Below, in pieces: positions 1 to 45,916 of a DNA stretch of 64,000 bases. The position numbers were made by a program, and so were the translations under genes. The DNA is taken from the NCBI GenBank assembly GCA_036172245.1, contig JAYWIR010000007.1, positions 1,860,001 to 1,924,000 on the forward strand, given 5' to 3'. The notes under the pieces were generated by a model. It ran no database searches. It saw nothing but the letters and a program-made list of their open reading frames with translations, and was not told where the DNA came from. Each line of letters begins with the position of its first letter. The first letter of the stretch is position 1. The DNA is from Raillietiella orientalis (Eukaryota).

Positions 1-545
1 CTGCAACCCCGCGAACGGTAGCGCCTGCCTACAGGAAACCGCCCGCACGTGGGGGAGGAGCCAGGAACAAGGCACGGAATAGGTGCGCCGGTTCCTGTTC
101 GTGCACAACAACCGTTCCACGCTCCGATGTATCCTGAAGTATCCCGGAAAAAATGCATGGGCAGGAAGAACTCCCCTCGCCGCAGCGCTGCCCTCCTTCA
201 GGGAACAACTGAGCAGCTTCATGGCTGCGAAATATGAAGTTGAGGTGAACATCTCAGGAAGTGAAAAAGGACTGGACGAGTGGAAGACGGGCCAGCTCAC
301 CGACGCTGTGACCGCGAGTACACCACCTTACGGACTCCTGCGCTGGTGCGAGCCGCTGGATGTTCCGGTGGAACACCATCTTCCGGTGGCCCCGGTACTT
401 ATGGACAACCGCACCCTCCCCATGAAGTGACAGAAGTCGGCGCTGCTGCATTGGGGTCTCCCATAGAACTCCCGCCGTCACCACTGGATGCGTGTGTGTG
501 TAGACCCCAACTGTGTGAGGTGCGGGGAACAGGAATCCCTCCTCC
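1..545 (+). mobile_element. Degenerate LINE (L1/Tx1-like) ORF2 C-terminal fragment with Cys-rich (zf-RVT-like) region
   Basis: Reading on past the stops after ORF 83..430 gives ...ALLHWGLP*NSRRHHWMRVCVDPNCVRCGEQES. This resembles the LH..LP....RL....CxxCGExE motif at the end of L1/Tx1 ORF2, and clear LINE fragments lie alongside. Confidence 0.5.
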
Positions 546-806
546 TACCTGCTAGTGAATTGTGTTGTTGCCCTTCGGCCCCTTTGTGGACGCTTTGCTG
601 CAACCTTAGGATCCCCCGGTGGCAACTCCAGGGACGTTTGAAAACCCCTCTTCTTTCGCGACACCCTTCGGCCAGCAGCCTCCCTTGCAGCCTTGTGTTC
701 CCTACACGGTATCGTCGCAGACTGGAGCAAAGCGACGGGAGAACCCAGCGATAGGGATCCCTATCGCTAGGTTGCCATCCATTTCACCATCCAATTCATT
801 AGAATA

Positions 807-990
807 ACGACGCGATGGTCCCACCTGGAAATGAACATTCAGTTAGACCTTGCCGGCATCCTGGAGAGGATGGACCGGACTGCCACCAGCAGACAGTGAT
901 CCCTTCCCGAAGCCCTCCATAGTGCATTTATTTTTATTTTTTGTTTTCTTTTTTTTTTCTTTTTGTTTTCCCCCTCCCCTCCGCTGTCGT
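807..990 (+). mobile_element. LINE ORF2 terminus plus start of 3' UTR (plus-strand copy)
   Basis: TTRWSHLEMNIQLDLAGILERMDRTATSRQ* (TGA 897-899) aligns with the minus-strand copy ATRWRRLRILKPALVRIQNWMQRTTRGEQ*. Both continue with CAGTGATCCCTTCCC and a T-rich tract. Confidence 0.55.
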
Positions 991-991
991 T

Positions 992-1480
992 GTTTTTTAC
1001 CCAGATTTCCGAGGCATTTAATATTAAAATTTTATCAATGAATTTATAATAAAGTCTTTAAGCTTTTGTTCGTGGTTCCGCCTGTCTTGCAACACTTGTC
1101 TTTACCGGCCCGCAGGCAGGTAAGGTGTTCACCTCTGGTGAAGGGGATGGGAAAACCACAAAAAAAAATAAAATAAAATGAAGAAAGAAAAGGGGAGGGC
1201 AATGTTTTTCGGGAAGGGTGAGGAAGGGAAGGGATCACTGCTCGCCGCGGGTGGTCCTCTGCATCCAGTTTTGGATGCGGACAAGTGCTGGTTTTAGAAT
1301 TCTAAGCCGGCGCCATCGGGTAGCCTTCTCCATGGAGATGACTGCCCAGTGAATGGCATTCCGGCTGTTGTGGCCGTAGTGGACCGCGCCAGTCTGCCTA
1401 CCGGCGACCCGGCAGGTGTCTTTGAAATTGGGCGTGGTTGGACCACTAGTCCAACCACAATTTTCTCTGTAATGAGTTTG
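992..1480 (-). mobile_element. LINE ORF2 terminus plus full 3' UTR and A-rich tail (minus-strand copy)
   Basis: The ORF ends ...QRTTRGEQ* at 1235. The 3' UTR is similar to 1550-1780 and ends ATTAAATGCCTCGGAAATCTGGGTAAAAAAC. Confidence 0.55.
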
Positions 1481-1549
1481 TTTTAAAAATAAATGCCCCA
1501 GCGCACTCGAGAGGAAATAGAGCCTTGCTTCCGGGGTGGACATAGGCAG

Positions 1550-3657
1550 CAGAAGTTTCTCACCCGGATAGGCCGGGGCATTTATTATTGAAATTTTTAT
1601 ACAAAAATTTTATAAGTCTTGAATAAGTTTTGTATCGTGGTAGAACACTTGGCTCTACCACGCTCGGTAGACTTGTCATGAACCGGTATTAAGACCGGTG
1701 AGGTCCTCTCCAGGGGCGAAGGGGAAGAGAGAAACAAAACAAAAAAACCAAAAGAATTGAAAAGGGGAGGGGAATGTAGGAGGAGAAGTAGATCATCTGC
1801 GTAAGCTGCCACGGACGGCGTACACAGAGAGAGGTTGGGCAGGTTGATCAGTGTCTGCCTGTACGCTCTCAACACTAACTCGAATTAGATGCTGGAGTGC
1901 AGAGGGCTTAAGCTGTTTGCCCTTCCTGATGCCTCTGCGTAGAGCCACACCGTACACGTGGCAGTCGCTGAAACAAAAGTCGACTAACGCGTGGCGCCAG
2001 CAAGAGCGCAAGTACAGAAGGAGTTAGGTCGGAAGTCCGAGGCGTTGCAGGAGCTCCTTGAGGAGTACCCGGATGATGCAGTCGAATGCTTTGTGAAGAT
2101 CAACCGCGACCGCCGAGGCTCCCGGCCTTTCTCCAGTGTCGGCACTGGCGCTTGCAGTCGGTAGGAGCTCTCGTTGCTGCACCACTGTCTGTCGCAACGC
2201 GTTCCTGAAGCTGAAACCAAATGCTCAGGAAAAGGAGGTTCGCAACCATGGAGCGCCTGGAAACAGCGTAGGACTGCTGTGGGTTCCATTTTTTCATCTA
2301 TCATATCGAGAAAATTTTGGTACAAACCCAGATCATGCCCGCAATTCCCTAACAAATTGTGGTATTCGGCGTCCTGAATACGGAGACCGACGTGTGCATT
2401 ACCAAAATACAAGAAAACGAGGGATCAATACACTTATCCAGATCATGTCCCGTTTTGGCAAGCACAACGAGACTGCATCCAACATCAATCATAATGAGCG
2501 TCTAGAGTTTTTGGGAGATGCTGTTGTGGAATTTCTCACAACTATTCACTTGTTCTTGTTTCCATCCATTGAGGAAGGTGGATTGGCCACATATCGTGCA
2601 GCTATTGTCCAAAACCAGCATTTAGCTGTATTGGCACAAAAACTGAATCCGGAAAAATATTTGTTGTATGCTCATGGCTCTGAGTTATGCCATGAGGTAA
2701 AGCTGCGACATGCAATGGCCAACTGTTTTGAAGCATTAATTGGTGCTTTGCTTCTAGGTGCTGGGCTGGAGAAGACAAATGAGATCTTCTCTAAGGCCCT
2801 ATTTGCTGATCAGCCAGAGTTGTTGGAGATTTGACTAGGTTTGCCTCTTCATCCTTTACAAGAACAAGAACAAGAATGCTATCGGCACTGGATAGATAAA
2901 GTTCCTTTCTTGGAAAAGTTCACTCAGTTCGAAAAAGAAATAGGCATCGGATTCCATCACATTAGGATGTTAGCAAGAGCCTTCACAGACCGGAGTGTTG
3001 GTTACAATGATTTAACCATGGGCTCCAATCAGCGACTTGAGTTTCTGGGAGATACAGTTTTACAGCTCATCACTCTTCCTAGGCGCTCTATTCAAAGCTT
3101 GGAAAACATCTTGACGTCTGTATTCACTAAGGTGATCGGACTCTAGTTGTTAAGCAGGAGCAAATCTTCGCCTTTCGGCAGGAGACGCTCCTTAGCTGAG
3201 TGGGAGGAGGCAGGGAACTCCCTGATCAGCGACGAGATGCTCAGCACTAGTGGGGCGAGTTCCACCGTGAAGCTCTGAAATAACTCCGCGGGCAGCCCGT
3301 CCTCACCTGGTGCCTTTCGTCTCTCTCCGCGATGGCGGAAAAAACTTCCTCGAACGTGCAGAGCTGGTCGAGACGTGAGCGCCCCTTCTCGCTGATCTCG
3401 TGAGCACCCACCGGCAGAAGTAGCTCCTAGAGAGCTCTCTCCGTCGGGGCCCATGAGTACAGCGAGGAGTAGAATCGTCTTACAGCTCGTCGTACGTCGG
3501 CTGGGTGTTCATCGGAGATATTGTGAATTTCCTGCAGGAGTGCCAAGTCGAAACGGCACAGAGAGTTCGCCAGACTGCACATGTTCTTACCCTTGCTCAG
3601 CCCGTTGACATTTCAACAGGCTACGCTTAAGCGACGAGATGAAACGACTCCCCGCAT
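1550..3657 (-). mobile_element. Internally deleted, inactive L1/Tx1-like LINE (APE endonuclease N-terminus, RT core, 3' UTR), interrupted by a Drosha fragment
   Basis: Minus-strand motifs in canonical order: MRGVVSSRRLSVAC*NVNGL...DLALLQEIH (APE start, ATG 3655-3657); RRFYSSLYS; KAPGEDGLPAELF; LLPKGED..NN*SPITLVNTDVKMFSK..RL; PQQSYAVSRRSMVANL; VDLHKAFD; RRGIRKG; AYADDLLLL (~1785-1805); then the 3' UTR. Multiple stops and frameshifts. Confidence 0.9.
2295..3074 (+). pseudogene. drosha: Drosha (RNase III) gene fragment covering RNase IIIa and the start of RNase IIIb; intronless and disabled
   Basis: HLSYRENFGTNPDHARNSLTNCGIRRPEYGDR...NERLEFLGDAVVEF...EEGGLATYRAAIVQNQHL...LRHAMANCFEALIGA...ARAFTDRS..GSNQRLEFLGDTVLQLI is recognisably arthropod Drosha. 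It has an in-frame TGA at 2832-2834 in place of a Trp, an apparent one-codon deletion (HLF-LFP), and truncation at both ends. Confidence 0.95.
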
Positions 3658-3689
3658 TATAACTGGAAAGACGATGGCGGGTTCCTCGA

Positions 3690-4410
3690 CCCGTCCGGCG
3701 AGTTGGACAGGACTAAAGGTGAACAGGGTGAAGTCGTCCGTGATGCCAGTCGATGCGGCGTCGGCAGAGCATCTGGACTGGATCCGCTTGCAGACACCCA
3801 CGGTTCGGTACTTCAATTACATCGAAGTGCCGTTGGGGGACTATCTTCCGGCGGAGGCGTGGTCCAACTGCCTCCAGAAGGCAGAGTCGGCGATCGGTCC
3901 GTTCCAAGGAGGCAGGTTTTGCCTACCGGAACGGGTTGTGATGTGGAACACGTTCGCGGTCCCCCTCCTCCGTCCCCTGCTTTTTGTTTGCTTCCTGCCT
4001 GAGGGGATCAAGAAGCAGACGAAGAACGACCTAAGAATCGCCCTTTGGAGCAAAGGGAGGTCCCGAGTCCGTATGAAGGACTGGGACGCTCCGCGCTGGG
4101 ACGCCGGTCTCGGCCCCCTGATGCTTGAGCGGCTGGAGCTTCAGCCCCAGTAAAGGGCAGGAAGTAGCGAAGTTTTGGGGCACCACCTGGTGCGACCCTG
4201 CTCGCCTCCTCGTCGAACAGGTCACCGAGAAGGCGTAACTCGCCTCCTTCCTTGCGCTCCGTGGCCGCAACATCTGCCACTGCGGATTGCAGCTTCGGCG
4301 GGGGACCGCGCTGAGGAGGAGGAACATGGGATGGGTCTTCTGCGGTCCCGCGAACGGTGGTGCCAAGCAAGAAGCAACGCACAGAACAGGTTCGCTGCTT
4401 TCTATGGCGA
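3690..4410 (+). mobile_element. LINE ORF2 fragment (post-YADD thumb region), L1/Tx1-like
   Basis: TGLKVNRVKS...YFNYIEVPLG...ERVVMWNTFAVP...ALWSKGRSRV...APRWDAGLG matches the GLK.N..KS / YLGVPL / GGLG motifs that follow the RT core. Confidence 0.85.
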
Positions 4411-4559
4411 ATGATGAATTATTGCCGATACATAAGCAGTTACAAATAGCTGATTAAAATTAGTTACATCAAAATTGATGCTTTGTTTAAGCAAATTGTG
4501 AATAAGACTGGAGGTGGGAAAATACAGAAACGAATAACCACATTAAGGAAACCTTGAAA

Positions 4560-5402
4560 TATAGTTTCTCCATAAAGGTACAATAATGGATCGATGGATG
4601 GGATATGTAATCGATTAGCAAGACTCATTTAAGGATTCGAATCACTTCTGAGGAAAATTTGATTATATAGAGATCTGCGATGTATTAAACAATCAACCAA
4701 GCACTAAGTTGCAACGGAAAGAAATTTTGAGATTTAATGGTCATGGAGGATTTTCAAATTTTTTAATGGAGGGAAATAAGACAGTGATCAAAGATTGCAT
4801 GTCAGCTGTTGGGTTATGTATGATCATCTTCCAAATGATTCTAGAAATCAAGAATTCTCCCAATAGGAATGTCGTACCACTAATGCAAACGATTTATTAC
4901 CTCAATTTCAAAAATAAGGTGCATGCAACACTTTTGAGCCACTACCACCAAAGTCAGAATGTCACCTCGCCTCGATAAGATGCAGATACCTAACTTCGTT
5001 TCCCAACTTTGAAAATAGTGCAGGAAGTCTTACGCTAAGTGGCTATATTCCTCTTATACATTACTATGAACGGTTGCAGCGTCATCAAACGTTCTACCTC
5101 TCGGCTTTATTGTACTCTTCGAGAATCGACAAGATCTGCATCAAGCGAACATTGTATACGAAGAAATCACAGGAAGGACTTTTTCAACCAAAAATTAACT
5201 AGGCAAAAGTGCGAGATGGGAAGCAGTTATGGCTCAAGTGTTTACAACTCGCAAGCATCTTTCGACCTGCATTTCTAGAAATTCCTTACCGACTCCGCCT
5301 CGCACCTTGTGATTGGAAACCAGGAAAATGGGAACGAATTTGGCATACCTCAAGCACTTGCAGAGGTGCTTGAGTAGGAATTAACACAGGCACATTCTTA
5401 AG
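4560..5402 (+). mobile_element. Possible highly decayed Tc1-like transposase relic
   Basis: Weak collinear echoes of Tc1 motifs: GHGGFS...DCMSAVG (cf. HGGGS..VWGC.SA.G), NVVP, and GIPQALAEVL (cf. SMP.RL..VI). Many stops. Confidence 0.25.
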
Positions 5403-5479
5403 TTGATTCTCCGTTCATCAGCAATTTCTCAGATGATGAAACGTCGATTGCGTTACTTAGCAACAACCGTTTTGTTCTC

Positions 5480-5850
5480 AACTGAAGCGGAAGGGATTTC
5501 CATTTTCGAATCTTTCCATTGTCTATGGGCAGCAATCAGCAATCTCGGAAACACTCTCCTCACTGCAAAACGAGACATACTCGAGCGTGCAGCACCGAAT
5601 GCATTCTTTAAACATCATGAGAATCATGGTAACACTGTTACGATTTTTCGCGTACAGGTACATATACCTCTCATCACTAACCATCATTCGTACATTCGGA
5701 AGGATGACACATGTCTCCTTTTGCATGAGCCTGTCTATACGCTAGCTGCAGCAATGACAAATCGCTCGAAGGGGGTTGCGATGCGTCTCCAACCTTCTCA
5801 CCACACGCTGGTGCACTGTCTCCACGGTTGCAGCTGCTACTGAAAAAAGT
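5480..5850 (-). mobile_element. Possible decayed Tc1-like transposase N-terminal (HTH) relic
   Basis: Minus strand SDERYMYLYAKNRNSVT and, after a frameshift, SMSRFAVRRV resemble Tc1 'EDR.I...A.RNR..T' and 'VS..TVRRRL'. Confidence 0.3.
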
Positions 5851-6149
5851 CTTAGAGATCTCTTGAAACATCGCACCACACACGTGCTAGAATGTTCCAC
5901 AGACACCAGAATAACGAATGAAGGTTTTGACTTTGAAAAGATGAAACACGAAAATCATTAAGTTTCGAACGTAGCTTCCTAACTAGGAAAATGTCCTTAC
6001 TTGAGAGTTTTCATGTGGAAGGTATTTTTTTTCATATTTAATTTATTTTATGTCTGCTGCACAGTTTTCACTCCCCTTAAAACAAACAAACAAACAAACA
6101 AGCAAGCAAGCAAAAAAAAAAAAAAAAAAAAAAACAGAGCAGTAATCAG

Positions 6150-6560
6150 TTTTCGATACATTCGCATGAAAATTAATTTATCTTTTGGATCGATTATGTA
6201 CTGCTGATACGAAAAATAGCATGCAAATCCGTTCCCAATGAATTTTTTGGGTAAATGGATTCGTCTCCTAGGGAACGAGTTTGTAGATGTTTCGGGATTT
6301 CCAGCAGTCGAGTACTGCTTAAGAATTTTTACCTTGCTTTGCAAAATATCCGGCAGAAATTCAGTTTTCGACTAGGGATATTTCGATGTATTTCGAATAT
6401 CGGTTTCTCTCTTCGTTTCGAAATCGTGAACGTTCTAGCATATTTAATGATACGAGCTGTTTTTTTTTTTTTTTTCCTCTTCATTTTAGTGGAAAAATGT
6501 AAAGCGATCTTGATACTTCTCGAAGATAACAGCTGATTGTTACTGTTGGAGATCAAGTAA
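6150..6560 (+). promoter_or_regulatory. Candidate distal promoter / 5' end of the ensconsin (MAP7) gene
   Basis: Local cluster of CpG/TCGA words in AT-rich DNA, immediately upstream of donor-like sites (6795 gtacgt; 7233 gtaaag) and of a CpG-poor zone. The transcription start site is inferred. Confidence 0.4.
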
Positions 6561-7204
6561 TTTGCATATTACGTTTGTGCATGAATAAAAGCATTTTACA
6601 AGCAAGTAAGTCTCGGCAAAAGTCTGGTTTTTCTTCTTCCTATGTGCATATCATCATTTACGTAGTTCTTTGTGTAATGTGTGGAATTAATTGTAGTAGG
6701 GATCCGCCCAGTCACAATTGAAAACTTGAGACTTTAATATGCAAGTGATCGGTTGAATGAAACTGCTGTTAATTAATGCCCAGAAAATCCGATGGTACGT
6801 GCTAAGAGGAGGAGGATAGTTTTTGTTTTTTGCGTTATTTCGAATTTCAAGTTTTGAAAACTGAATGGTGTCCGAGAAGTCACGATGAAAATTCGGTCAA
6901 TTTTTTTGTTCAGTAGTGTTTTCACAAAACCATTTCCTTTGCATGCCATGAAAACAATTCGTTTCTTGCTTTTCTTCCACTACTTGTTTGTGTTGCGTAT
7001 GTTATTGTATTTTAAATTAGGGAACACTTTTAGTGCTAGTAAAGGATACAGTTGTGTTTTTTTTGGTGGGTGTTATTATAAGTCATTTTGAGCATTAAGA
7101 ACAAACGACCAAATTTTTGTACCTATTTTCAGAGTATGATGATATGTAACTCACATATTTTATGAAAAGTTTTGGTCTCCTGACGTACAGAATTATCCAT
7201 TGGA

Positions 7205-7232
7205 ATGGAATCGTGTAGAGTTTCTACTTCAG
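7205..7232 (+). CDS. ens: Candidate first coding exon of ensconsin/MAP7 (MESCRVSTS; exon 7133-7232)
   Basis: Acceptor tattttcag| at 7132 and donor CAG|gtaaag at 7233. The phase-1 end matches the phase-1 start of exon 28502. Confidence 0.45.
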
Positions 7233-10200
7233 GTAAAGTTTATGATTAATCTTTGAACTTTCAGTAGAGAAATGCTCGTGGATGCATTTTGTTTTTGTTT
7301 TTTTTCTTATACATGCGTTCTACCCTTGGTGCATGTTGTGATGTGTAATGAATATACTTCCCGACTCATGAAGTCAGAGAAATTAAACACTTATAGAAAT
7401 TTATTTTTTGGTAGTTATCCACAAGCTTTGAACATTTTGTAATAGTAATCTTAAATCCTGATTTGCGGATGCTGCACTATGAATGTTACGGATTCAAGGT
7501 TGCAAAAAGAATCAGCATTGTTTCATTATTTGGTATTCTGTCTCCAAGTCCCTTTACGCTTAGTAGGGATCTGCAATTTATAATGCAAATCTGTGATAGC
7601 TGACTATTTTGCTTGCCAGTTGGCAGCAGCATTTGAGAATGTGAATCCATGGTAATGATTGATGAGAGATGATGACATAAAGTGACAGAAATAATTAGAG
7701 GAACAGCACTTTGTAACTATTGTAATGCCTGCAAAAAGACTCCTTAGATATCTGCTTATCAGAGATGTGAGTACAAAACATCTTTGTGCACTGCTACCCA
7801 TGTTCTGAATGGTAATCATGCTTACAATCACACTGCATTTTTTCCCAATTCATTGTTCATCAGGAGTGAAGTTGATGCCATTTAGGAAGGATTGCTTGAA
7901 AATGCTTTTGAAGTAATAATCCAGCAGTACAAGTTGTCATGAGCGACTTGAGATCCATAGCCAATTGCAAATTTTCTTATTTATTTATTTATCTTATTTT
8001 TGATGGAATTTTATGGAATACTTCATCCCATATTAAGATGCATTGGACTGAAGAAATGCATCAAGTTTTTTCTTTTCTTGAAACAGATTGTTTGTTCTTC
8101 TGTGAAGACAAAAGAATTGTGCAGGCTTACAGTATCTTTCTGAAAATTGTACCAACTTATTAGGCTACATTGAATTGCAGTCAGCATGTTAAAGAATATC
8201 AGGATGAAATCTTAGGTAACATTTCATGTGCTGAATTTTCACTTTTGAAGTGTCCAAGAATTCCTTACTATGGCCTCCATGCTTGCAGGGTATTACAAAG
8301 TGTGCAATTCAGGTTTCTTTAAGAATTTGTTTGGGGATGCATAGTATATAAAATACAAGCCTTAGTTATCTCAGTATGTGTGCTTCAACCCAACATAATT
8401 TATTAATGGATGCAGTATTCCAAAGGATTCTATTAGAAGAAAAAATTAGGAAAATTTTCCAGTCAATTGTAGATTCTCAAGTAGCCAATTGTAATTTATA
8501 TTGTTAGACTCCTACTTTATCCTTTTATTGAGTCAATTCATTCACTTTCTCAATCTCATCTCGAATTTCCTAATCTTTATCCAACATGTACACAAATAAC
8601 AAATTGTTTGTTAAGAGCATTATTTCCTAGTGCATTGAGTGGATGCGTTTTACATTGTCATGCATTGCATATATTTCTTTTAGTTGTTCCATATGAAATT
8701 AGTGTATTTTCTATTCCATGTTGTTTGCATATTGGGTTCCTGTTTCTTTGCATGAATTACAGATGCTGTACTTTTGTGTGCAACTGTTGTCTTTCAGATG
8801 AATATGGATATCTTTGTCAAAAACTGACAAACCCCATTGTTGTATAAAAAAAATTCTTTTCTTTTTTTTTTACATTGAGCAGCATGTCCACATAACCAGC
8901 CTTTAAGAGCATAACAGTTTGCATCAAGAGAAGATCATGCTCCTGTTGTCATTGTATTCCTACTCATGATGATGGAACAGTCGTGCTTTTTGATTTTTCA
9001 AATGCAATTGAATAGAAGCAGATATGTGTCCCATGGGCTTTATTCTGAAACTTTAAAAATCAAGAAAGATTTGGATGCTGATTGCTCAATCAGAAATCCA
9101 GAAACACATCTACATGGAGAACTCCTGCACTTGTTCACATTTTAAATAATGATTTCTCTTAGGTAAAGAATGAAGCATCAGCCACAGTAGTGTTGAACAA
9201 GCAGGGCTTTTCGAATTGTGACATGTATCCGGACTTGAAGTGCATTCCTTCAGTAGTTCATGTATAGCCTGGTTTTTTGTCAATTCATGGAAAGTGATGC
9301 ATTCTGTTACTACAAGATCATATATTATGGGGTACTACTAATACAATTTACAAACGAGGTTGTGTTTATTTGTAAATTGTAAATTCTTGTCATTTTGATG
9401 CTTTTTGCAATCTTTACAATATCTTTAGAGTGGAAGACTTTCTACTTACTTGATCACAATGAGTTTACCTAATTAAAGGTGGTGTGAGTGATGGGAATCA
9501 TCTCACTGTTTTCTCACTTTGCAAATCAGGCCTCAGTGTAAAGCTGATGGCCTTTCTTTCAGACTCAGAAAATGTTGACAAAGAATGGTGTCAAATCTTG
9601 TGTGACTCAGCAGTTTTTTCTGAAGTGCCATCAGATCTCATATTGATAAATCTCATGGTCTAAATGAATTATTTTAGTTGTGCATAGAAACTCTTGATTG
9701 GAGTAATTACTGGACGCTGTGCACTTTCTAAAGAAATTGTAGGAAAATTTTCCAGAAGAATTGACCATACGGTTTAGAAAACAATCTGCTTGTTCTCAGT
9801 ATTGTCCAGGCATGTAAGCGATCTGATTAGTTTATATGTGTATGTGTATGTGTGTGTGTGTGTGTATATATTACCAGTGTAGCTGTTTTCCAGTTCAAGA
9901 GCTTGCATCTCTCACAACGACTTTTCATAACCTTGTGACACAGCTTTGTTTCTCCAGACTTTTTCCTTTCTTGGTTTATCTTTTGGGTTTTTTTTTTTCT
10001 CATTGATTCTACAAGTTTAACCTATTTTCAGATTCAAAATATTTGCTTAAACAGTGTCAGAGCATATTAATACAGTGTAGAGATCCAAGTGGTTTCTCCA
10101 TGAATGAGTTGTCCGGTAGAGAAACTCTCATTTGTGGACAGCGTTTTTCGTATTTTGTTTTTGAAGTATCGAAGTAGTCAAATGTTCGACTTGAGTGTCC

Positions 10201-12048
10201 TTTCTTTTATCGGTAATTCTTATCTGCTTGATTCTTCCTTGATAATTTACGCCTCTGTTTTGTATACACGTTCTGTATGCAGTACAACCGGGTATTCAAT
10301 CATCCGCCTCTTTATTTGTCTGGAAGGTCAGTAATTCACTCGGGTGTTCCTATCTTGTGAGGAAAAGTGACAGTTGTTCTCCGGAGTTGCTGCTCAAGAC
10401 GGTTGGTGCAACGAATCGGTTGAAATAGCTCATGCAGTTCCCGCGAAAAACGTCTGTTGCAATAAAATGTATTTTGGTTTGTGGATCTATTCATCTGTCA
10501 TCAAATTGTGTGCGGTTTTGTGAACCCTTTACGTGTGTTGCATCCATTTAGAAGCACTCTTGTGCTGTTGCTTTCATCCTTGTATCTGCATGCAAAGTCA
10601 CAGTGCTCCTAATGCACAGTTTGCCGTTTTGTATCTTCAGTGTAACACCGTAAATGTGTTTCCCATCAGAACGGCTACTCTTTATGAAAACGTGAAGCTA
10701 ACTAATAAGATGTAGGCGCATCCTTTAGTAGGCATTATAATGTTCGCCGTTTCTTCACGCATCTGTATGTACACGTACCCACGTATGTACATACATATGT
10801 ATGTCAGTTGATTTTATCCTTACGCTGCAAGACTTCCATGCATCTCGTAGAAGGGAACCTGGGCTGCAAATGTTCCTTTTTTGTGTTTCAAAGGAGTACA
10901 CGTGTATTTAGGAATGCATCTTAGCGGGCAGCCTGGCGTTCCTGGCAACTCATTCAACCGATTTGAGAAGAAGAAGAAGAAAAAAAAACGGCGGTTAGAA
11001 ACTTTCTAGAGTGCTGCCAATGTGAAGGCGTGGGTTCCATTTTCCTGATTCTCCGTACATTCTGAAAGCGCGCGTGGAAATGCGACAAATTGACCGGCAA
11101 AAGTGTTGAAGTTGGGTGTTGGTGGGTGAATCTGTGTTTCCTTCTTGCGTGCATGCGTGTGCGCATACACGGTGGGAATCGTTCCCTTTCCGCTGGCAAT
11201 CCCGTGGCGCGCCGATGCTCCTTTTGCTGAGCGTGAACGGGAAATTTTGAAAAGGAAGTTGGGATAAGGAGAGAGCGCAGGGCCACCTATGGAAAGATGA
11301 TTGATGCTATCGTAAGCAACTCCTTGTGATCACCGATAAAATCCAATCGGAAGGTTTTCCTTCTTTTTTTTTTTTTTTTTTCTTTGTGTGTGTGTGTGTG
11401 AGGTATTTGCACAGGTGTCATCGTAGGTGTCTTCTAAAAGTAATCCCCCAAAATAAACGGATCAGGAACGATTGCGCTACTTTGGCTTTCCTTTCGGTTA
11501 AAGGCCTTATGGGAGAACGGGAAACTTTTGCATATTCGAAATGCATCCGTGTTATGCTGTGGGGTGTTCTTTTTGCATGTTCTCTTTTGTTACCAAACGT
11601 AAGATTTTGTACCGCGTGGAAGTGTTTTGTCTTTTTTTTTTTTTGCTTTCCGGCATGCTTGAAAATGGCGTTAGAACTCGGTGGGAGCACTCGAAATGAT
11701 GCAAAAAAGGCAACCAGGTTGATAACTTCATTTCGTTTGCACACATCGGGTGGTGGTGGTGGTGGTGGTACGCCGAAGGCAGCATGAAGGCAAGGGAATG
11801 CTTGCTAACAGCATCCTCGTAGCAAAATCTATAGAAGAAAGTCACCCTCTCTAAAGTGAACGCAAGGAAAAGCTATGCCTCACCCAAAAGTGCTGAAAAG
11901 TGGGAGTGCACGGAAGAAATCATTAAGGTGTGTGTGTGTGTTTGCGAACCACAGCAAGTACATGGTAGATGAAGAGAGGAAAGGATCTTTCGAAAGTGGG
12001 AACACGTATGTGTCTCTTGAGCTGATCATGGCATGATGAAAAATTTCA

Positions 12049-31600: not shown

Positions 31601-34600
31601 AGGGTGACTGCTCCTTCCCGGTCAATGTAGCTTTTCGTTTTGGAGTTTTCAGCGCATTTTTTAAATAATAACCTTGAAAAAGTGTCAGGGAGAAAGGGTT
31701 CGTAAGACACGGAATTGGCGAGACTGCTGCATCAGCTACCCAAACCGGTTTTTTTGGTCTCATGTCCTCTTTGACCGTACACAATGGATTCCTCCTTTCG
31801 AACGTGTTGAAAGTGTGTGATTTTCGTGCCGTGTGCCTTTTAAAGGTTGCGACAGTTTTTTTGTTTGTGTTTTCCCCTATCTACAGGAATAGGTGTCCTT
31901 AGAGAATTGGTGGGTATGCATTGATGGCTATTCTTGCTTTGGTGCGGAGTTTCGCTCTTTATAGTGTTCCCAGCATTATTTCGGACTGCTAGTCCGTTAG
32001 TGAACTTTAATCGCTGCTGATAAATCGGAGAGCCAGCTGCCCATTTATCAGAAACGATCGAGACTACAGTTGCTCTGCGGGGCTATCTTTCGTTCTTTCA
32101 AAGCTGTAGGTCCTTCTGCTTTGCTTTTGTTGTTTTCACTTGTCCCGCACCAATTTTTTTTTTAGTCACATTTTTTGCATCTCTATCTTTGGTGTTTTAT
32201 GCTCGTGCCTTTTCGGGTGTGTGTGTCCATTTCCTGTGGCGCGGCCGCCTGTTTGTGCCACGTGGTTGACGGCTGCGCTCTTGCTTTTCCTAACCTAGTA
32301 TCGTGCCTGGCCACCCTTACACGTGGACTTCCTGGAATTATCTTTGACGTCGGTTGCGTGGATTTCTAGGCTGCGAGATATACCACACAGATAAATAGCT
32401 TAACCCCCGAGCCTCCTCCACACCGAGCTGCTCATTCGAAACCTTTCAAATTGGATCCGTCCTTTCCCAGTCCAACGCCCAAGCTCGCTCGCCTTTGCTT
32501 CGTTTCCTGCTCCAACCTTCGCGTTTCCCCCCTCGATGCCCTACGTGGTGGTAGTACTTTGCAACGCACGTAGGTCATGGCCATAATCACGGCCACTCGT
32601 GATTTCCGGAGCCATGTGCAGGATAGAGATCAGGAAGAGACGCCAGCCCCCGTGCTGCTTTCGAAGACTGCAGGAAGTTGTCTCTGTTCACCCAAACGGT
32701 CGTTCGTCTCTTCGAGTTCGTACCGCCTTGCCCGGTTCCCCCTTCATGTTCCAGAAATCGTACTTGAGCTCCTCCTTCATTCCTACAGCAGTCGTCCTAT
32801 CATCGCGATGCGATACTCACCAACGACTGAAAGCGAAAGGCTGTGTGCCTCCCCTCCCCTTAAAAAAAAAAAAAAAAACTGAGCTCTTCGGAAAGCAAAC
32901 AGTTGCGCGACTCCTCCTTGGGCCTTGGCGGAAGCATGCAAAGACCATCCTCGCCTCGCAGAAGGGATTCCTCCAGAAGCCAAGGGAGCTTTCGAGCCAA
33001 ATTTTGTGAAAAATGCGGTGGGAGACCCTGGTTTTCTGGTTAAGCAGCCCATGAGCTGTTTACGATGTGACGGTGCGTTCTCTCCGCCTCGTTTTTCTTC
33101 AGCGAAAGCCGCTGCAATCGTACCCTCCCTCCTACTTCCCGTTTTCTGTCTTTTGTGTAACTCCTAACTTTCGGAATTGATCCACGCCACGTTCCTTGGC
33201 AGTTGGAGCGCTCACGTCAAACAGCAGCGGGCGAACGACCTACGACACACGTAGGTGCGTACGTTCCTCCCTCATCCTGCCTCCATATTGAGGAGTTTGT
33301 TCCCCCACGAGGAACTTGTTCCCTTTTTTCCGACACTTCCAGACTCCGGGAACCCGCTCGTAGAAGGAGCGTGTCAGTGTGGAGTGTTGGGTGGACGCTG
33401 GAAAGAATCAAACACCTTCAGGTGCGAGAGAGGCAGGCGCCGCCCGGCCTTTACGTGTTACCGCTCCCACATGCAGCATGCAAGATGCGATGAAGATTAT
33501 ATCCTCTGCTCCGCTCATCTTTCCGCTGTTTACCAACCCGGGCATCGTCTTCCGGATGGAATGTGCATGTAATTTGCTGTTGATTGATGACCAGGAGCGT
33601 ATCTCTTGCCGTGCATGTCTAATTACTCGTGCCGTGATCTATGCGAGGACTTCGATCTAGAAGGATCCCATTCACACATACACACTTTCCTTCCCATTTT
33701 GTGTGTGTGTGTGTGTGTGTGTGAGTGTGAATTGCAGTGCTCTCCCTCCTCGAAAGACTTCTCCATCCTTGATCCCAATGTTATTTTTTATTTTACCTAT
33801 CCGTTCTGCATGAAAACTTGAACGCTGCGTTAATTCTCACGGTAGCAGATGGCCTGGTGTGCCCGATTGTCTATTTTGGAAGTTTTTATCTCCGGTACGG
33901 AGGCTTCGACATGCCATCTCTTCCCGGCAACCTTTCCTGGCAACCACGCGTGTGTTGCTCCGTGTTGCTTTTTGCGTGCGTGTGCGTGTTTTTTCCCCTT
34001 CTGCGGTGCTCCGGACGTTTGGGGCTCGGAAGGCCACTTCGCCTCATCGGAACGTGAGCTCTTGTTTGGGGCAGCAGTCCTCAAATGCCAACCATCCATC
34101 GAAAGATCCGCGCCTTTGCCTCCGTCGAGGTGGACGTGGAAGCAGCGGTCGATGGAGTGACTATCCCCTCGCCTGTGGGCCGACGGCCAGCTGCGAAACA
34201 AAGAAGAGGCCTGACTGGGAACTCTCGGAGCGCAAGAGCGGTGGACTGCACGGAGCTAGAGGAATGCCTGGATATCGGTCGCACGGGATCGTGATGACCG
34301 CTTCGCCCGACTGCACCGAGAGGGAAGGCTCAGGGAGGGAAGAGCGGCTGCATCGGATGCCGCCGTCGCCTTGTCGTCGGTTCGCGGCGGCGGAGGATGC
34401 GTGGGAGCCCTTGGCGTCCCGTGACCAAGCCAAGTCGCCGTGTCCATCCGCAGCGGCGGGTTCATTGCGTAGACGCGCATGGGTCCGTCCCCGCAACGGT
34501 TTACCGACCGGAAAAGAGGGGACTGCGGAGAGCGTAGCTTGGTGGACATGATGCATTCCAAAGAGCCGGACCGCGACGCGTCCTGCCTGTATCGTCATCA

Positions 34601-37600
34601 TCATCAACCCGTTTGCTTTGCTGCGTGCTGTTTTTATCCTTTTAGAATTGTGCCCCGCTAGCTATTGGCCCTCCGGTATGGCTCGGGCTCCCCTTGCTTC
34701 CCGATGCATGCAAGGGTGGTGCTTGCCTCCTTCCGAAGGGACAACTGACGTTTCCTTTCGGATGCCCCCCGCTTCCCCGCTTGTTTTATACGAAAGCCTT
34801 GTGATCGTGTCATTTCCAAGCAACCGAGAAGCCCGCTGCTTTTGGCGCAGGGGGCGCTCGTGTACTAACGCTGCCCGTTTGTATGCAGTGTAAATACACG
34901 GGTCAGCTCTTGTAGCATGAGTAGATATCAAAATGGACGTTCTACCAAGGGATCACAGAGTGGTGTGAAGTTCCACCGATGGGGTTTCGTGTCCATGGCG
35001 TGCTTACGCCGTTGGCTGTGCGCCCGCCCGTACGCGTGCGTATACCTTCAACCGGTAGACGTATGCAAGCTCAAAGATCAGGGATTGCATGAACATTTGT
35101 TCATATGTGGATAATGTACAAAGGATGTTCATCATCTTCCCCTTTTCCCTTGTCGTGAAGAAAATCTTCCACTTAAAGTAATGCTTTATTTTTTTCTGGA
35201 AACTTGAAAAAACAAACTCGTATCACCAGGTAATTTTATCTAAGAGAACAGTTTTCTCTCTCTTGCGATGAGTTCTCCAGCTCATATGTCTAGATTTCAC
35301 CATTTTCAGTTTACATCGAAAATAATAATGATCGAAAACCATGAAGTGCCCCTCCCTAAGCTTAGCTTTGAACAATTCTGGTGTTTTTTTTTCTTTTTTT
35401 ACCATATACCGACCTTTGCTAGATTGTACAATGCTTATTAATATTTTGAACATTGATGCTGCTTATGAATTGAAACATGCCTTCAACTTTTTTTCGAAGA
35501 CGTTGATGGGGTCATGTATATTATATGACATCGATTATGTTATGTACTATATGCATTCGATTACAGAGCGACCGTATAAATTAAGTCTTGGAGGAATCGA
35601 ATGAAGTGTTCGCAATTTTGTAGAAAGAGGTCAGATGCCACGAGTGGGAATGATTTCCATGGTTTTTCCATGGTTTCCGTCCTGAATCTCAGACTCCAAA
35701 AATTTTCTGAAAATGAAGAGTTTGCTGGAATAACGTGGCAAAAAAAAAAAAAACTCCTACGTTGAAAGTGAAAATGTGTACAAGCCGTTCGCCCTGTGCT
35801 CGTGTGTGTGTGTGTGTGGGTGTGTATACGAGTGAATGAACGCTGTTACGCGGCGGCGCATGCACATGTGCGCACACGAGGCCTCCTCTTCCTCCTCCTC
35901 CCGCCATCAAATCTTTTGGGCGTCTGTGCGTTCGTGCTCGCGAGTTTTCGAGCACGTGATTCCGCGCTCGCGAAGATGCCCGGGTACGAGTTTCCGGCCC
36001 CCTTCCGTTCGCGAATCCCAGCGAATCTCCTCCAACCCTTCCCGCGCATCCCGTTTCCCGAGAGCCGGGGAACCTTTGACCGTGGACGCTCCCGCAGCCA
36101 AAGGTCTCCAAGTGTTTTCCTCGCGCGCACGTGTACGAACGATGTGCGAGCGACGGCGGCGAGCCGAAAGGGGAAGGGCACGACAGCGGCTCGGCGGGCG
36201 TTCACCTTGTTTGCTTGCCTGTTCCGTTCGCATCCCCTGCCCTTCCTCGCCTCCCACCCCGCTAAGCCAGAGTTCTCACCGCTGTGCTTCCAGGCCGAGA
36301 ACGCTCAAAAGTTCCGAATCGAGCAAGAGCTGGGCAAGCGGAAGAAGATCGAAGAGCTGAAGGCCAAGGAGCAGCAGCGCCTCTCCCAAGTCAGCGAGAG
36401 GAAGAAGGCTCTTGAGGAAGCTGAGCAGGAGAGGAGGGAAGCCGTGATTCGTCGGAACAAAGTGAGCCAGGAGGAGGCTTCCGGGTCTCTTCTTCTTCCC
36501 CTGGGGCAGCATCCCCGTTTGTTGCGTGTGTGCGCGCTTCATGAATTCCTTTTCCCCCGCACAGGAGCGCGAGGCTCGCCTGGAAACGAAGCGGCGCAAC
36601 GAGCGCAGCTCCCTGGTGTTCGCTTTCGGCAGCTGCACCCCCAGGATGCTGAGCACGGCGCCCGGGACCGGGATCCTCTCGGAGAGGTGAGGACCCCCCC
36701 TCCTTCCGCTTTCCGCCTCCCCCTGTTCTTCCTTCTCTCACCCGACCTTTTCCCCTTCCTTGCGTGCGTGCTCTTCCGTAGGGCGATTCCCTCGGCGGAG
36801 CCGAACCCTCACTTTATAAGAAGGTTCGGAGGGCACGCAGAGAACGGCGGCGGTATCGGCGAGAAGAAGCGAGCCTTGAGCGCCAGCGGACTGGACAGGA
36901 AGCACGCCTCAGGTATCTCCCCTCTTTTCCCTCAGCATGCGCGCATTCAGCCAGGTCGGTCAGCCGGCCGGCAGGCACTTGCGCTTTTCCCTTCCACCAC
37001 GTTTTTTTTTTTTTTTTTTTGCCCTCTTTTGGTTTTTTTTTTTTTTTCTTTCTCTTACTCGTGCGATCAGATTCCCGGTCCACTTCGATGTACGAGGTGT
37101 TCCAGTGGGAGGACCCTGCTCCTCCTCCTACCTCTTGGGAGAAGGGTCAGAAAACGGAAGACGGAGCAGCGGCTGCACGCTACGCCGACTGCCCGCACTC
37201 TTCCGCCTCTCCGGCTTACTGCGTGGCTCGCTCTCCTCCGGATCTAAGGGACTCTTCCTTTACTCCCCCTAACAGACTTCGCCCTTCTGGCTGGCCACAG
37301 CCTTTCCTCTGTCCGGATGGCGGTCACAAGGACAGGGATTTTTCGACTTCTTATCTGTCGACCCCCATCGGTGAGTTGTTTGCTTAGTGGCGGCTCCTTT
37401 CCTTGCCTGTTGGTTCCCTGCCGAGTGTTGTGTTTTGGTGCCTCGCACACTTCCTCCTCCTCCTCCTTCTCCTCTTGCACACTCAACTACTTGCTTGGGT
37501 TTTGTATCTGTAGACTGCTTGATTGTTTGTTTCTCCGTTTGCTTATCGACGGGTAAGGAAGAAAGGGAGCTCTGTGCTGCTCGCCACCAGCTGCTTTCAG

Positions 37601-39965
37601 GAGCTGCACCTAACCTCTGCTTCCATCTTTTTTTCAGATGACGTCATGACTCAGTCGTTCACTGCAGGCGTTCCTGTCGGGCGCGGCCGTCGCAAAACTG
37701 ATATCCACCCGCTGACGCCAACCGGCAGCGGCGGCGGCGCCACCCGAGCTGTTGCGAGTTCTGTAAAAGGGACCATGAGTTCCTCAGGTAGGGCGTGCTC
37801 TATGGGCCGCTTGGATCGCAGCACGCTGCTGTCGTCGAGAACGCGACCGGGAGTCGCCGCCTGTAAGTCAAAGCAAGGTATAGTGGATCAGACAGTCACA
37901 GGACCCAAAAACGCCGTCAGCCTCATGCATCTGGCTGAACGCAGCAACCGCACCGAGCAGTTACGGCTTCGGTTGCGTCACTTTGAGAAGACAGAAGTCG
38001 ACCAGCAATCCGGTAAGGCCCGAAGGCTCTCCCGGGAATGATAGCATAAGGCAGACTCACTCTCAACAAATAGCGATCTTTTTTTTAAAAGAAAAAAAAA
38101 ATGATTTCTTTTTTCCCGTTTCGTTTGGCTGCTGCGGCGCTGTTGTTGTTGGTTGTTGATCTCTTTGTTGCCTTCCATTATGAGGTTTTGCAGCATCATT
38201 CCTCACCATCCCCTTCTCCCTCTTTCCGTGTCTCCAGTTTCGCGCTTCGCCGGTTCGCGCCTTTCGAGCGCCAACGCCTCCGCCGCCTCTAGCACGCCTT
38301 CTGGAAGTCTCTCGGTTGCAATTCGTCAGAACTCAGCGAAGAAGAGTCGTCCCCTCAGCATCGCCGGCACGGTTCCAGATGTACCGCCGCGCACTTCCCA
38401 TGCAGGTACGCCGGCGGTGCTCGCTGGATCCCCCGCTCTTTCTCGATCGACCTTTGCCTTTCTGCATCCCGTAGGAAGGGTTGCTCCCACCACCAGGGCT
38501 CCTGCCGTGCTCAGGAGGGAGGCAGAGAAGGTTGCCAAGGTTGGTTCTGCGTTCTTTGGGAGGGAGGGAGAACATGATCGCATCCGTGTGCCGTTTTTTC
38601 CTTGAAGGAGCTTCCAAGCAAGGAAAAGAACAGGAAGCCAGCGAAGCTCGCCCAGGCGGCGTCGCAACCAGAGGAGGAACCTGCGAAAGACAAGTCCGGC
38701 GGCGGAGATGGCGGCGGTGGTGGTGAAAGCGTTGCAGCACCTACTTCTGCTGTCTCTACGGCTCCCATTGTGGAGGACACGACTGCTCAAGGGGACACTC
38801 TAAAAGAAATGATGGTGGTAACGGCGGCTACGGTCAGAGAAGAAGGTGAGCGGCCTCGACGGCGACTACGAGACGATGGAACTGGACCCTTTTCCGCTTT
38901 CTCTCTGCCCCTCTCCTCCTCTTCTCTATCGAAATGTCCGTATTCTCAGAAACGGAATGCAAGAAGCGCATCGCTACCGAAGAGGAGGCCAAGGCCGCCA
39001 TAGCAGAAAAGCGTCGCCAAGCACGGCAGCAGGCGGAGAAGGAGGCTGCCGAGCAGAAGAGGTAGGAAAGATTTCGCGCACCTTCCCCCTCTCCCGTCGT
39101 CACGCCATCATGCCAAACAGACTCGAAGAGCAGGAGAGAAGAAGGGAAGAGGAGGAAAGGCTGCAGTTCGAACGGGAGATGGAGATGCAGAGGCAGCACG
39201 AGGAAGAACGCCTGAGGCAGGCTATCGAGGTGACCATACCTTCTATTCTCCTTCCTCGCCCCCTTTCCCTCTTCCTTGCGTTCCCCTTCTCCCCTTTCAA
39301 AGAAAGGATCGATTGCGGCGAGTGGATCGTGCGCGCCGTCTTTCAGGAGGCACAGAGGAAAGAGGAGGAGCAGAGGGCTCAGAGGGAAGAGGAGGCGCGC
39401 TTGCGCGCCGAGAAGGAGGAAGCGGACAGGAAAGCCCTCGAGGTAGCGGAGCAGCTCCGCAAAGAAAACGAGGAGAAGCTGCGGAAGGAGGAGGAGGAGC
39501 GGCTGGCCAGGAAGCAGGTGGGCTGCGCGCGCTGTTTTCCTTAAGACCCCGTGCCACGAGCTTTTTCCTCCCCCGCAGAGGGTGGCTGCTATCATGAGCC
39601 GCGCGCGGTCGAGGACGACAGCAACGGCGGCGTCCGAAACGGCACAGGTAAGACCTCCTGTCCCCGGCGCCACTCGTGCGTCTCGTTCCCAGCACAGTTC
39701 CCTTTCTTCCTCCCTTTCCTTTGAGCAGCAGCAGGACGAGGCAGCAGAGCTGATGTCGCCGTTGGAGCAGGCGCCGTCCGAGCTTGCGGAAGGAGAGCAG
39801 CAGCAGCAGCAGCCTATGTTGAATGGTCAAGCGAATGGACTCATCCAGGCGTCATCGTCTCCTCCTCTCGTCTCCTTTCCGGAGCCGATCACCATTCCCG
39901 GCGACAAGCTTCGCCCGCGAGACGAAAACGGCGTCGGCTTGGATTCGACTTCTTCTCTGTGCTAA
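28502..39965 (+). CDS. ens: Ensconsin / MAP7 (microtubule-associated protein, kinesin-1 activator), 14 core coding exons, ~800 aa
   Basis: Exons: 28502-28602, 36294-36461, 36565-36686, 36782-36912, 37071-37370, 37638-38012, 38238-38405, 38475-38539, 38608-38845, 38950-39061, 39121-39229, 39347-39517, 39579-39647, ~39729-39965. All phases are consistent. Motifs: N-terminal coiled coil DREDRIRVLREKQNEER...VFAFGSCTPRML, SMYEVFQW, RRKTD, RPLSIAG, and MAP7 domain TEEEAKAAIAEKRRQAR...RLARKQRVAAIMSRAR. Confidence 0.93.
31131..31205. repeat. Compound (CA)n(GA)n microsatellite
   Basis: Seen directly. Other (GT)n tracts at ~9837-9866, 33700-33722 and 51806-51837. Confidence 0.9.
33890..34584 (-). repeat. 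~695-bp inverted repeat, arm 1 (inside the MAP7 GC-AG intron)
   Basis: Reverse complement of 45222-45916. The ORF-track translations are mirror images with only isolated substitutions (PDWELS/PDWGLS; MECIM/MERIM). Confidence 0.97.
36294..36912 (+). CDS. ens: MAP7 exons 36294-36461, 36565-36686, 36782-36912 (N-terminal coiled coil to FAFGS motif)
   Basis: AENAQKFRIEQELGKRKKIEEL...RRNK | EREARLETKRRNERSSLVFAFGSCTPRML | ...KKRALSASGLDRK; canonical GT-AG introns. Confidence 0.92.
37071..38845 (+). CDS. ens: MAP7 central low-complexity exons 37071-37370, 37638-38012, 38238-38405, 38475-38539, 38608-38845
   Basis: SMYEVFQW; DDVMTQSF..GRGRRKTDI; GRACSMGRLD; SRPLSIAG; GT-AG sites with compatible phases. 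Confidence 0.8.
38950..39965 (+). CDS. ens: MAP7-domain and terminal exons 38950-39061, 39121-39229, 39347-39517, 39579-39647, ~39729-39965
   Basis: KRIATEEEAKAAIAEKRRQAR, an E/R-rich helix, RKQRVAAIMSRAR; stop TAA at 39963-39965. Confidence 0.9.
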
Positions 39966-45221: not shown

Positions 45222-45916
45222 AGAACGCATCGCGGTCCGGCTCTTTGGAACGCATCATGTCCACCAAGCTACGCTCTCCGCAGTCCCCTCTTTTCCGGTC
45301 GGTAAACCGTTGCGGGGACGGACCCATGCGCGTCTACGCAATGAACCCGCCGCTGCGGATGGACACGGCGACTTGGCTTGGTCACGGGACGCCAAGGGCT
45401 CCCACGCATCCTCCGCCGCCGCGAACCGACGACAAGGCGACGGCGGCATCCGATGCAGCCGCTCTTCCCTCCCTGAGCCTTCCCTCTCGGTGCAGTCGGG
45501 CGAAGCGGTCATCACGATCCCGTGCGACCGATATCCAGGCATTCCTCTAGCTCCGTGCAGTCCACCGCTCTTGCGCTCCGAGAGTCCCCAGTCAGGCCTC
45601 TTCTTTGTTTCGCAGCTGGCCGTCGGCCCACAGGCGAGGGGATAGTCACTCCATCGACCGCTGCTTCCACGTCCACCTCGACGGAGGCAAAGGCGCGGAT
45701 CTTTCGATGGATGGTTGGCATTTGAGGACTGCTGCCCCAAACAAGAGCTCACGTTCCGATGAGGCGAAGTGGCCTTCCGAGCCCCAAACGTCCGGAGCAC
45801 CGCAGAAGGGGAAAAAACACGCACACGCACGCAAAAAGCAACACGGAGCAACACACGCGTGGTTGCCAGGAAAGGTTGCCGGGAAGAGATGGCATGTCGA
45901 AGCCTCCGTACCGGAG
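45222..45916 (+). repeat. ~695-bp inverted repeat, arm 2 (downstream of MAP7)
   Basis: Reverse complement of 33890-34584; ends in hairpin GCCTCCG-TAC-CGGAGGC followed by AAAAGAAAAAAC. Confidence 0.97.

Follow-up and report, generated by a model that had tools for sequence, protein, structure and literature searches.

A drosha coding fragment lying antisense within a decayed LINE reverse transcriptase of Raillietiella orientalis and bounded by TCATC repeats

We analysed a stretch of 64,000 nucleotides of the Raillietiella orientalis genome (assembly GCA_036172245.1, contig JAYWIR010000007.1, positions 1,860,001 to 1,924,000 of the forward strand), which we call the window and number from its first letter. 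In the first 4450 bases of the window (1-4450), at least six fragments from a single rare family of long interspersed nuclear elements (LINEs) lie together in a nest, in both orientations, and one of these fragments, here called piece C, is interrupted by a coding fragment of drosha. The drosha fragment lies on the plus strand, antisense to the minus-strand reverse transcriptase (RT) of the LINE, and a copy of the pentamer TCATC stands at each of its ends. A sequence-only reading of the same DNA had described an intronless and tail-less Drosha RNase III fragment set antisense in a LINE RT and precisely bounded by TCATC, and the coordinates, reading frames, Pfam matches and alignments of our analysis agree with that description. 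What could be read directly from the DNA is presented first, namely the anatomy of the insertion, the nature of its two partners, the frame and the signs of decay.

The Drosha-derived stretch is a pseudogene fragment of 259 codons (2295-3071, plus strand). It takes in the tail of the central domain, all of RNase IIIa, the linker and, from the start of RNase IIIb, ~20 residues. It opens at the conserved His of LTHPSYRENFGTNPDHARN and closes at LEFLGDTVLQLI, where RNase IIIb has just begun, with no intron-like break across the 259 codons. Two Pfam families were assigned to it, Ribonucleas_3_3 (PF14622, 1.4e-21) and Ribonuclease_3 (PF00636, 1.5e-19), and the RNase IIIa domain with the catalytic-signature context NERLEFLGDA was recovered both by Pfam and by alignment to 10 arthropod Drosha proteins. 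The same 10 proteins matched in tblastn with 68-73% identity over 2250/2274 to 3071/3074, while in blastp all 120 arthropod Drosha proteins matched (120/120), the best 40 of the 120 being 72-75% identical over residues 1-259. A start of the homology at 2274 was rejected, since only Leu-Leu agree there, by chance (LLWVPFFH in place of LLQLALTH). The reading frame carries two lesions: an in-frame TGA stop at 2832-2834 (plus strand), a position that is Trp in at least 97% of 119 homologues, and the loss of one codon between 2552 and 2553 (site 2550-2555, plus strand; HLF-LFP where the homologues read HLFFMFP). At the other end, the fragment stops inside the coding region (...CAGCTCATC followed by ACTC) and shows no A-run. 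The homology extends only from 2295 to 3071, short of a complete Drosha gene, and no other Drosha match, whether to a complete RNase IIIb, the double-stranded RNA-binding domain or the N-terminal and central domains, was found anywhere in the window. The insert is a non-functional internal drosha fragment and not a working gene, and nothing suggests a function for it.

Both flanks of the insert encode RT on the minus strand. The upstream half of piece C (3072-3516) corresponds to the N-terminal part of the RT and contains one frameshift and three stops, while the downstream half (1798-2293) contains two frameshifts, two stops and a 7-residue gap, and the YADD motif of the RT lies at 1792-1803. 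The nearest relative, P0121, has 619 residues and was encoded on a metagenome contig of 2.9 kb; it matches RVT_1 at 4.7e-24, and no other close relative turned up among 1.84 billion representatives. The upstream half (3516-3071) aligns with P0121 residues 6-160 and the downstream half with residues ~161-328; in the vicinity of the insert, residues 73-160 align at 3325-3071 and residues 166-328 at 2285-1798. Identities were 39-60% in piece C, and 39-64% when the further LINE piece D (described below) was included. The search of the representatives with a 121-residue RT piece returned five matches, and tblastn placed just two of them, P0121 and P0124, on the window; P0122 and P0125 had neither an RT domain in Pfam nor a tblastn alignment to the window, and P0123 had no such alignment. 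A search with P0121 itself gave no further relative above 32% identity, and the distant relatives (at most 32%) carry a domain set of the L1/Tx1 type (PF03372, RVT_1 and PF13966). No endonuclease match was obtained for piece C, and no Pfam match on any single open LINE piece.

The ATG inside GATGA, the minus-strand form of the pentamer, stands in the same codon phase in both copies. On that strand the upstream side reads ...AGA GTG ATG A (3076-3067) and the downstream side ATG AAA AAA TGG AAC (2297-2283), and because the phase is equal, removal of 773 bases restores an in-frame RT (...LGRVMKKWNPQQSYAV... / ...IERLGRVMKKWNPQQSYAV...), just as the sequence-only reading had it. Its statement that no LINE sequence was lost is borne out for the frame, but the rejoined LINE (LGRVMKKWNPQQ) is one residue short between a conserved Gly and Pro in comparison with P0121 (LGQLADGFISPEQ) and P0124 (LGSVMADVVHPDQ), the two comparable relatives, so that a loss of 3 bases at the insertion site is possible. 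Piece C as a whole has no intact open reading frame, with 3 frameshifts, 5 stops and the 7-residue gap in ~960 bases. It is a dead remnant among transposon debris, unable to carry other sequence, and the idea of a retroelement carrying part of a host enzyme had to be given up, given these lesions and the position of the piece within a nest of fragments.

Within 2201-3200, TCATC occurs three times, at 2294-2298, at 2849 and at 3067-3071. The direct repeat at the two junctions is exactly 5 bases long and the bases beyond it diverge, with CCATTTTTTCATC followed by TATCAT on the left and TTTACAGCTCATC followed by ACTCTT on the right (in wider form, ...TTTTTTCATC before TATCAT... and ...ACAGCTCATC before ACTCTT...). 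As a measure of chance, identical 5-mers spaced 773 bases apart were found at 98 of 63,222 positions of the window (0.16%). The G+C content also changes in a sharp step at both junctions, being 42% in the insert and 56% in each LINE flank. The repeat has the form of a target-site duplication, though a short one next to the imperfect repeat of ~13-14 bases that surrounds a nested LINE tail nearby.

The two pentamers fit the codons of both partners. In the Drosha frame, the left copy (2294-2298, plus strand) supplies the last base of a Thr codon, a complete His codon and the opening base of a Pro codon (T-CAT-C), and LTHPSY was present in 93/93 of the Drosha homologues that matched our left-context pattern, out of 120 examined. 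The right copy (3067-3071, plus strand) finishes a Leu codon and encodes Ile (c-TC, ATC); all 120 homologues matched the right-context pattern, 119 of the 120 having L(I/V) after LQ, and Thr was never the next residue. On the minus strand, the left copy reads G ATG A (Met-Lys) and the right one GTG ATG A (Val-Met-) in the LINE frame, which requires one pentamer as well (Val-Met-Lys), and Val-Met stands at the same place in P0124 ('SVMAD'). From these conserved codons, rather than from parental DNA, it can fairly be inferred that three source pentamers would have collapsed into two, with microhomology at both junctions. The earlier proposal of a double microhomology thus seems reasonable, and the junction bases, judged by the same codons, can be attributed to either partner, as in microhomology-mediated templated insertions.

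We also looked for related sequences outside the assembly. One RNA metatranscriptome run (X1), which contained 5% of the sampled words, yielded three short contigs matching the window. A contig of 227 nt matched 2311-2537 (plus strand) with 5 differences (97.8% identity) and reached neither junction; of the 4 differences that were listed, those at 2429 and 2450 read as synonymous and those at 2371 and 2468 as residue-changing. This level of identity indicates that a near-identical drosha sequence exists outside the assembly. The contig may be a parental or orthologous drosha transcript, or may have come from a copy like the insert. The two other contigs were LINE-like (64 and 52 bases, ~84-85% identity) with dissimilar loose ends, and no contig crossed a junction. 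An artefact of assembly or library preparation, in which a chimeric read or a misjoin put drosha complementary DNA (cDNA) into the LINE, would draw on the fact that the sole run found was an RNA metatranscriptome whose contig stops short of the junctions. We regard it as highly improbable, because after a misjoin one would not expect the LINE to go on in unchanged codon phase and with 5 bases duplicated, and because the 5 differences in 227 bases from the RNA contig, together with the stop and the codon deletion, are what an aged genomic copy would show.

A scan of metagenome contigs with the fragment recovered 45 Drosha loci, and the parental drosha was not among them. Identity to the fragment over its whole span was at most ~75% in these loci, and only short, exon-sized pieces reached 81-92%. 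Three of them (L012, L013 and L014) were ~72% identical to residues 1-115 of the fragment and had introns near residues 116 and 205-208; the contigs of L012 and L014 measured 57-60% G+C, which shows that G+C-rich, arthropod-like Drosha genes occur in environmental data. In a quick tree without an outgroup, the fragment was placed on a long branch beside chelicerates, and it probably belongs to a sparsely sampled arthropod lineage.

For the intron comparison we used the 40 metagenome Drosha loci that covered at least 100 residues of the fragment's span. At least one intron was found within the span in 28 of the 40, recurrently near residues ~43, ~115, ~155, ~205 and ~242, and against this background the intronless copy of 777 bases modestly favours an RNA template. 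The same counts bear on a patch copied from DNA, in which a nascent LINE strand ending in GATGA would have switched to genomic drosha, used one exon as template for 773 bases and come back to where it had left, by microhomology-mediated break-induced replication, by fork stalling and template switching, or by polymerase-theta end joining. The microhomology at two junctions and the return to the same pentamer fit such a patch equally well, orientation is free in DNA-level switching, and an intronless template could be supplied by a gene like the 12 of 40 comparison loci that have no intron in the span. The 28 loci with introns, the position of the fragment beside intron-rich chelicerates in the tree (with its long branch and missing outgroup) and the usual length of polymerase-theta templated insertions, far below 773 bases, all count against it, and we consider a DNA-templated patch unlikely, though it is the alternative to be taken most seriously.

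The reading that we favour, with modest confidence, is that the drosha coding fragment was copied from messenger RNA (mRNA) into a LINE copy already present in the genome, through priming by a GATGA 3' end at UCAUC. The strand continuous with the antisense Drosha sequence is the LINE-sense strand (the minus strand of the window), which at this place has a 3' end reading ...GATGA. That the template was RNA, which enzyme copied it and in what order the steps ran are inferences. A DNA 3' end finishing in ...GATGA on the LINE-sense strand would have come either from the 5-base 3' overhang of a staggered break (e.g. through a LINE endonuclease acting in the nest) or from a nascent repair strand. 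This end would have paired with UCAUC in the drosha mRNA, at the Leu-Ile codons where RNase IIIb begins, and a reverse transcriptase would have extended it for ~773 nt toward the 5' end of the mRNA. Once a second UCAUC had been copied, at the Thr-His-Pro codons, the new ...GATGA end could have paired with the complementary TCATC across the break, and the gap would have been sealed. The fragment would have been dead on arrival, with no start, no double-stranded RNA-binding domain and most of RNase IIIb missing, and the stop and the codon deletion would have been acquired later. This single step would yield twin pentamers common to Drosha and the LINE, a LINE that loses few bases or none, no poly(A), no introns and the antisense orientation. 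Nor would the pentamers be identical by coincidence, since a single staggered cut leaves two overhangs that are mutually complementary.

The orientation separates this priming model from ordinary template switching on RNA. According to bioRxiv 10.1101/2025.02.02.635956 and PMC2104539, chimeras formed by RT template switching or by RNA ligation have the LINE and the foreign RNA in the same orientation, and parts that run in opposite directions are the mark of priming that began at a break's second end. Since the sense strand of Drosha is the plus strand and that of the LINE the minus strand, ordinary RNA template switching is weakened. The earlier suggestion of a template switch out of the LINE and back into it can be kept in a modified form, as a chimera born during the LINE's own retrotransposition, in which LINE-sense second-strand synthesis jumped to drosha mRNA and back and of which several copies could exist. 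The pentamers would follow the same logic, the antisense orientation would be expected of a nascent strand that is LINE-sense, and LINE RTs are known to jump templates (PMC2104539). We nevertheless hold it to be rather improbable: the chimeras described in PMC2104539 and bioRxiv 10.1101/2025.02.02.635956 are same-sense and have the foreign RNA at their 5' end, not inside the LINE; the insert seems less decayed than the LINE flanks, which is a weak signal (P = 0.07); and shallow searches of the window, the one RNA run and the metagenome contigs gave no second copy of the LINE-Drosha chimera. The earlier reading had also proposed that a drosha circle (DNA or cDNA), cut out between two of the gene's TCATC sites, was integrated by recombination at a TCATC of the LINE. 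Such an event is compatible with the repeats, and would leave one pentamer per end, each fitting Drosha codons, but it is unnecessary, as a staggered break or a strand returning to its departure point explains the identical pentamers. It would call for the same pentamer to act in three independent microhomology events of 5 bases each, compared with one break in the other models; the pentamer is evidently common, as one more TCATC lies within the insert (2849), and there is no evidence here for such circles, so that we consider this origin very improbable.

With respect to the relative age of the two partners, we counted 2 lesions (1 stop and 1 codon deletion) in the 777 bases of the insert and 9 in the ~960 bases of the LINE flanks (binomial P = 0.07). 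These counts are compatible with an insert younger than the LINE copy. In addition, several truncated copies of the same family landed at this locus, which indicates that LINE endonuclease and RT acted there repeatedly. The lower decay of the insert and the repeated LINE hits fit LINE machinery working in trans on a pre-existing copy, and neither of them is strong.

Several observations weigh against the reading that we favour. The T at 2299, directly after the left pentamer, does not suit the invariant Pro codon. There is no poly(A), and the repeat has only 5 bases compared with ~13-14 around the nested LINE tail, so that this is not a canonical LINE-mediated retrocopy. The contrast in decay falls short of significance (P = 0.07), and a LINE copy may be defective from the start. 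The 12 of 40 comparison loci without an intron in the span (some of which may be transcript contigs) make a DNA template possible, and the parental drosha, with its TCATC sites and introns, was found neither in the one RNA run nor among the 45 metagenome loci. Finally, the X1 contig ends before both junctions and thus gives no read support across them.

The remaining parts of the nest were arranged as follows. LINE piece A (1-1012, plus strand) has, besides the C-terminal end of open reading frame 2 (P0121 residues 567-598 at 2-97), a Cys-rich motif in degenerate form and a 3' region rich in T, and it meets a LINE tail on the minus strand (1013-1285) tail-to-tail around 1012/1013. A probable LINE piece on the plus strand ends at 1499. 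A nested and heavily 5'-truncated LINE tail of the same family (1553-1790, minus strand) sits right after the YADDLLLLL of piece C and is bordered by the imperfect direct repeat of ~13-14 bases (ACTTCTCCTCCTA / ACTTCTGCTGCCTA); piece C continues past it at 1500-1570 (minus strand; LLLPMSTPEA, P0121 residues ~331-340). Three tails in the nest share the terminus ...AAATAAATGCC. LINE piece D (3707-4418, plus strand) matches P0121 residues 355-592 with 45-64% identity and stands head-to-head with piece C. A single twin-primed insertion of C and D is as likely as two separate copies, since piece C resumes past the nested tail (1500-1570) and piece D does not have the 3' end of the family.

Comparison with known systems places the insert close to several of them. 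It resembles truncated LINE-made retrocopies in reading as an intronless segment, probably copied from mRNA, with a short direct repeat, dead on arrival, at a locus repeatedly hit by LINEs, and differs from them in having no poly(A), a 3' end inside the coding region and a repeat of 5 bases. Microhomology is a feature of the 5' junction of such retrocopies. The A-run that marks a canonical processed pseudogene is absent and the 3' end is internal, which points to internal, microhomology-based priming. Template-switch chimeric retrogenes of the Buzdin/Gogvadze type (U6/L1 and the MINE of Magnaporthe; PMC2104539) likewise join a LINE and a cellular RNA copy without filler, but there the two are same-sense, the foreign part is 5' and the whole is flanked by repeats of 10-20 bp, whereas here the Drosha part is antisense and internal, with LINE sequence on both sides. 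In twin priming, or LINE 5' inversion, both 3' ends of a staggered break prime and the resulting segments are opposite (bioRxiv 10.1101/2025.02.02.635956), and the head-to-head pieces C and D resemble that arrangement; classical twin priming, however, inverts part of one LINE RNA and puts no piece of a cellular mRNA inside an existing LINE. The insert shares with templated insertions, or cDNA capture, at double-strand breaks a foreign copy, junction microhomology and a target that loses few bases or none. These insertions are usually described in experimental or cancer systems, and the insert is a relic in the germ line.

The rest of the window gave few recognisable features. Rfam returned no match on the whole window. 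Ten frames in 1-4450 were compared with Pfam: the two overlapping the insert matched the RNase III families and the other eight matched nothing, and none of 12 frames searched elsewhere (from 397 frames of at least 80 residues beyond 4400) had a match. The G+C content is ~34-36% at 4420-10500, just right of the LINE nest, and 58-69% in the last 28 kb (36000-64000), and the G+C-rich part of the window is crowded with long spurious open frames. Two frames on opposite strands and ~11 kb apart (33814-34548, plus; 45258-45953, minus) share more than 200 near-identical residues and form an inverted repeat of at least ~700 bases. The plus-strand stretches 35772-37244 and 38822-39541 are rich in Glu, Lys and Arg and coiled-coil-like (e.g. 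EEQERRREEEERLQFEREMEMQRQHEEERLRQ); they had no Pfam match and are maybe exons of a host gene.

Taken as a class, the insert is a gene-fragment pseudogene of the retrocopy/templated-insertion kind, an unusually legible single event of an ordinary class. It is a clean natural example of the pasting of a gene fragment by a few bases of microhomology at both ends, in which one pentamer would have served as primer site, landing site and target duplication, and it may be used as an illustration and as a dated marker in further study of this genome. It changes nothing in what is known of Drosha, LINEs or small-RNA biology unless the locus makes small RNAs against drosha. That the bidirectional LINE nest (1-4450) acts as a small-RNA source resembling a cluster of PIWI-interacting RNAs, and that the antisense drosha piece trapped in it yields small RNAs against drosha, is a speculation to which we give hardly any credence; if it were true, small RNAs from the nest would couple the silencing of transposons to the biogenesis of microRNAs.

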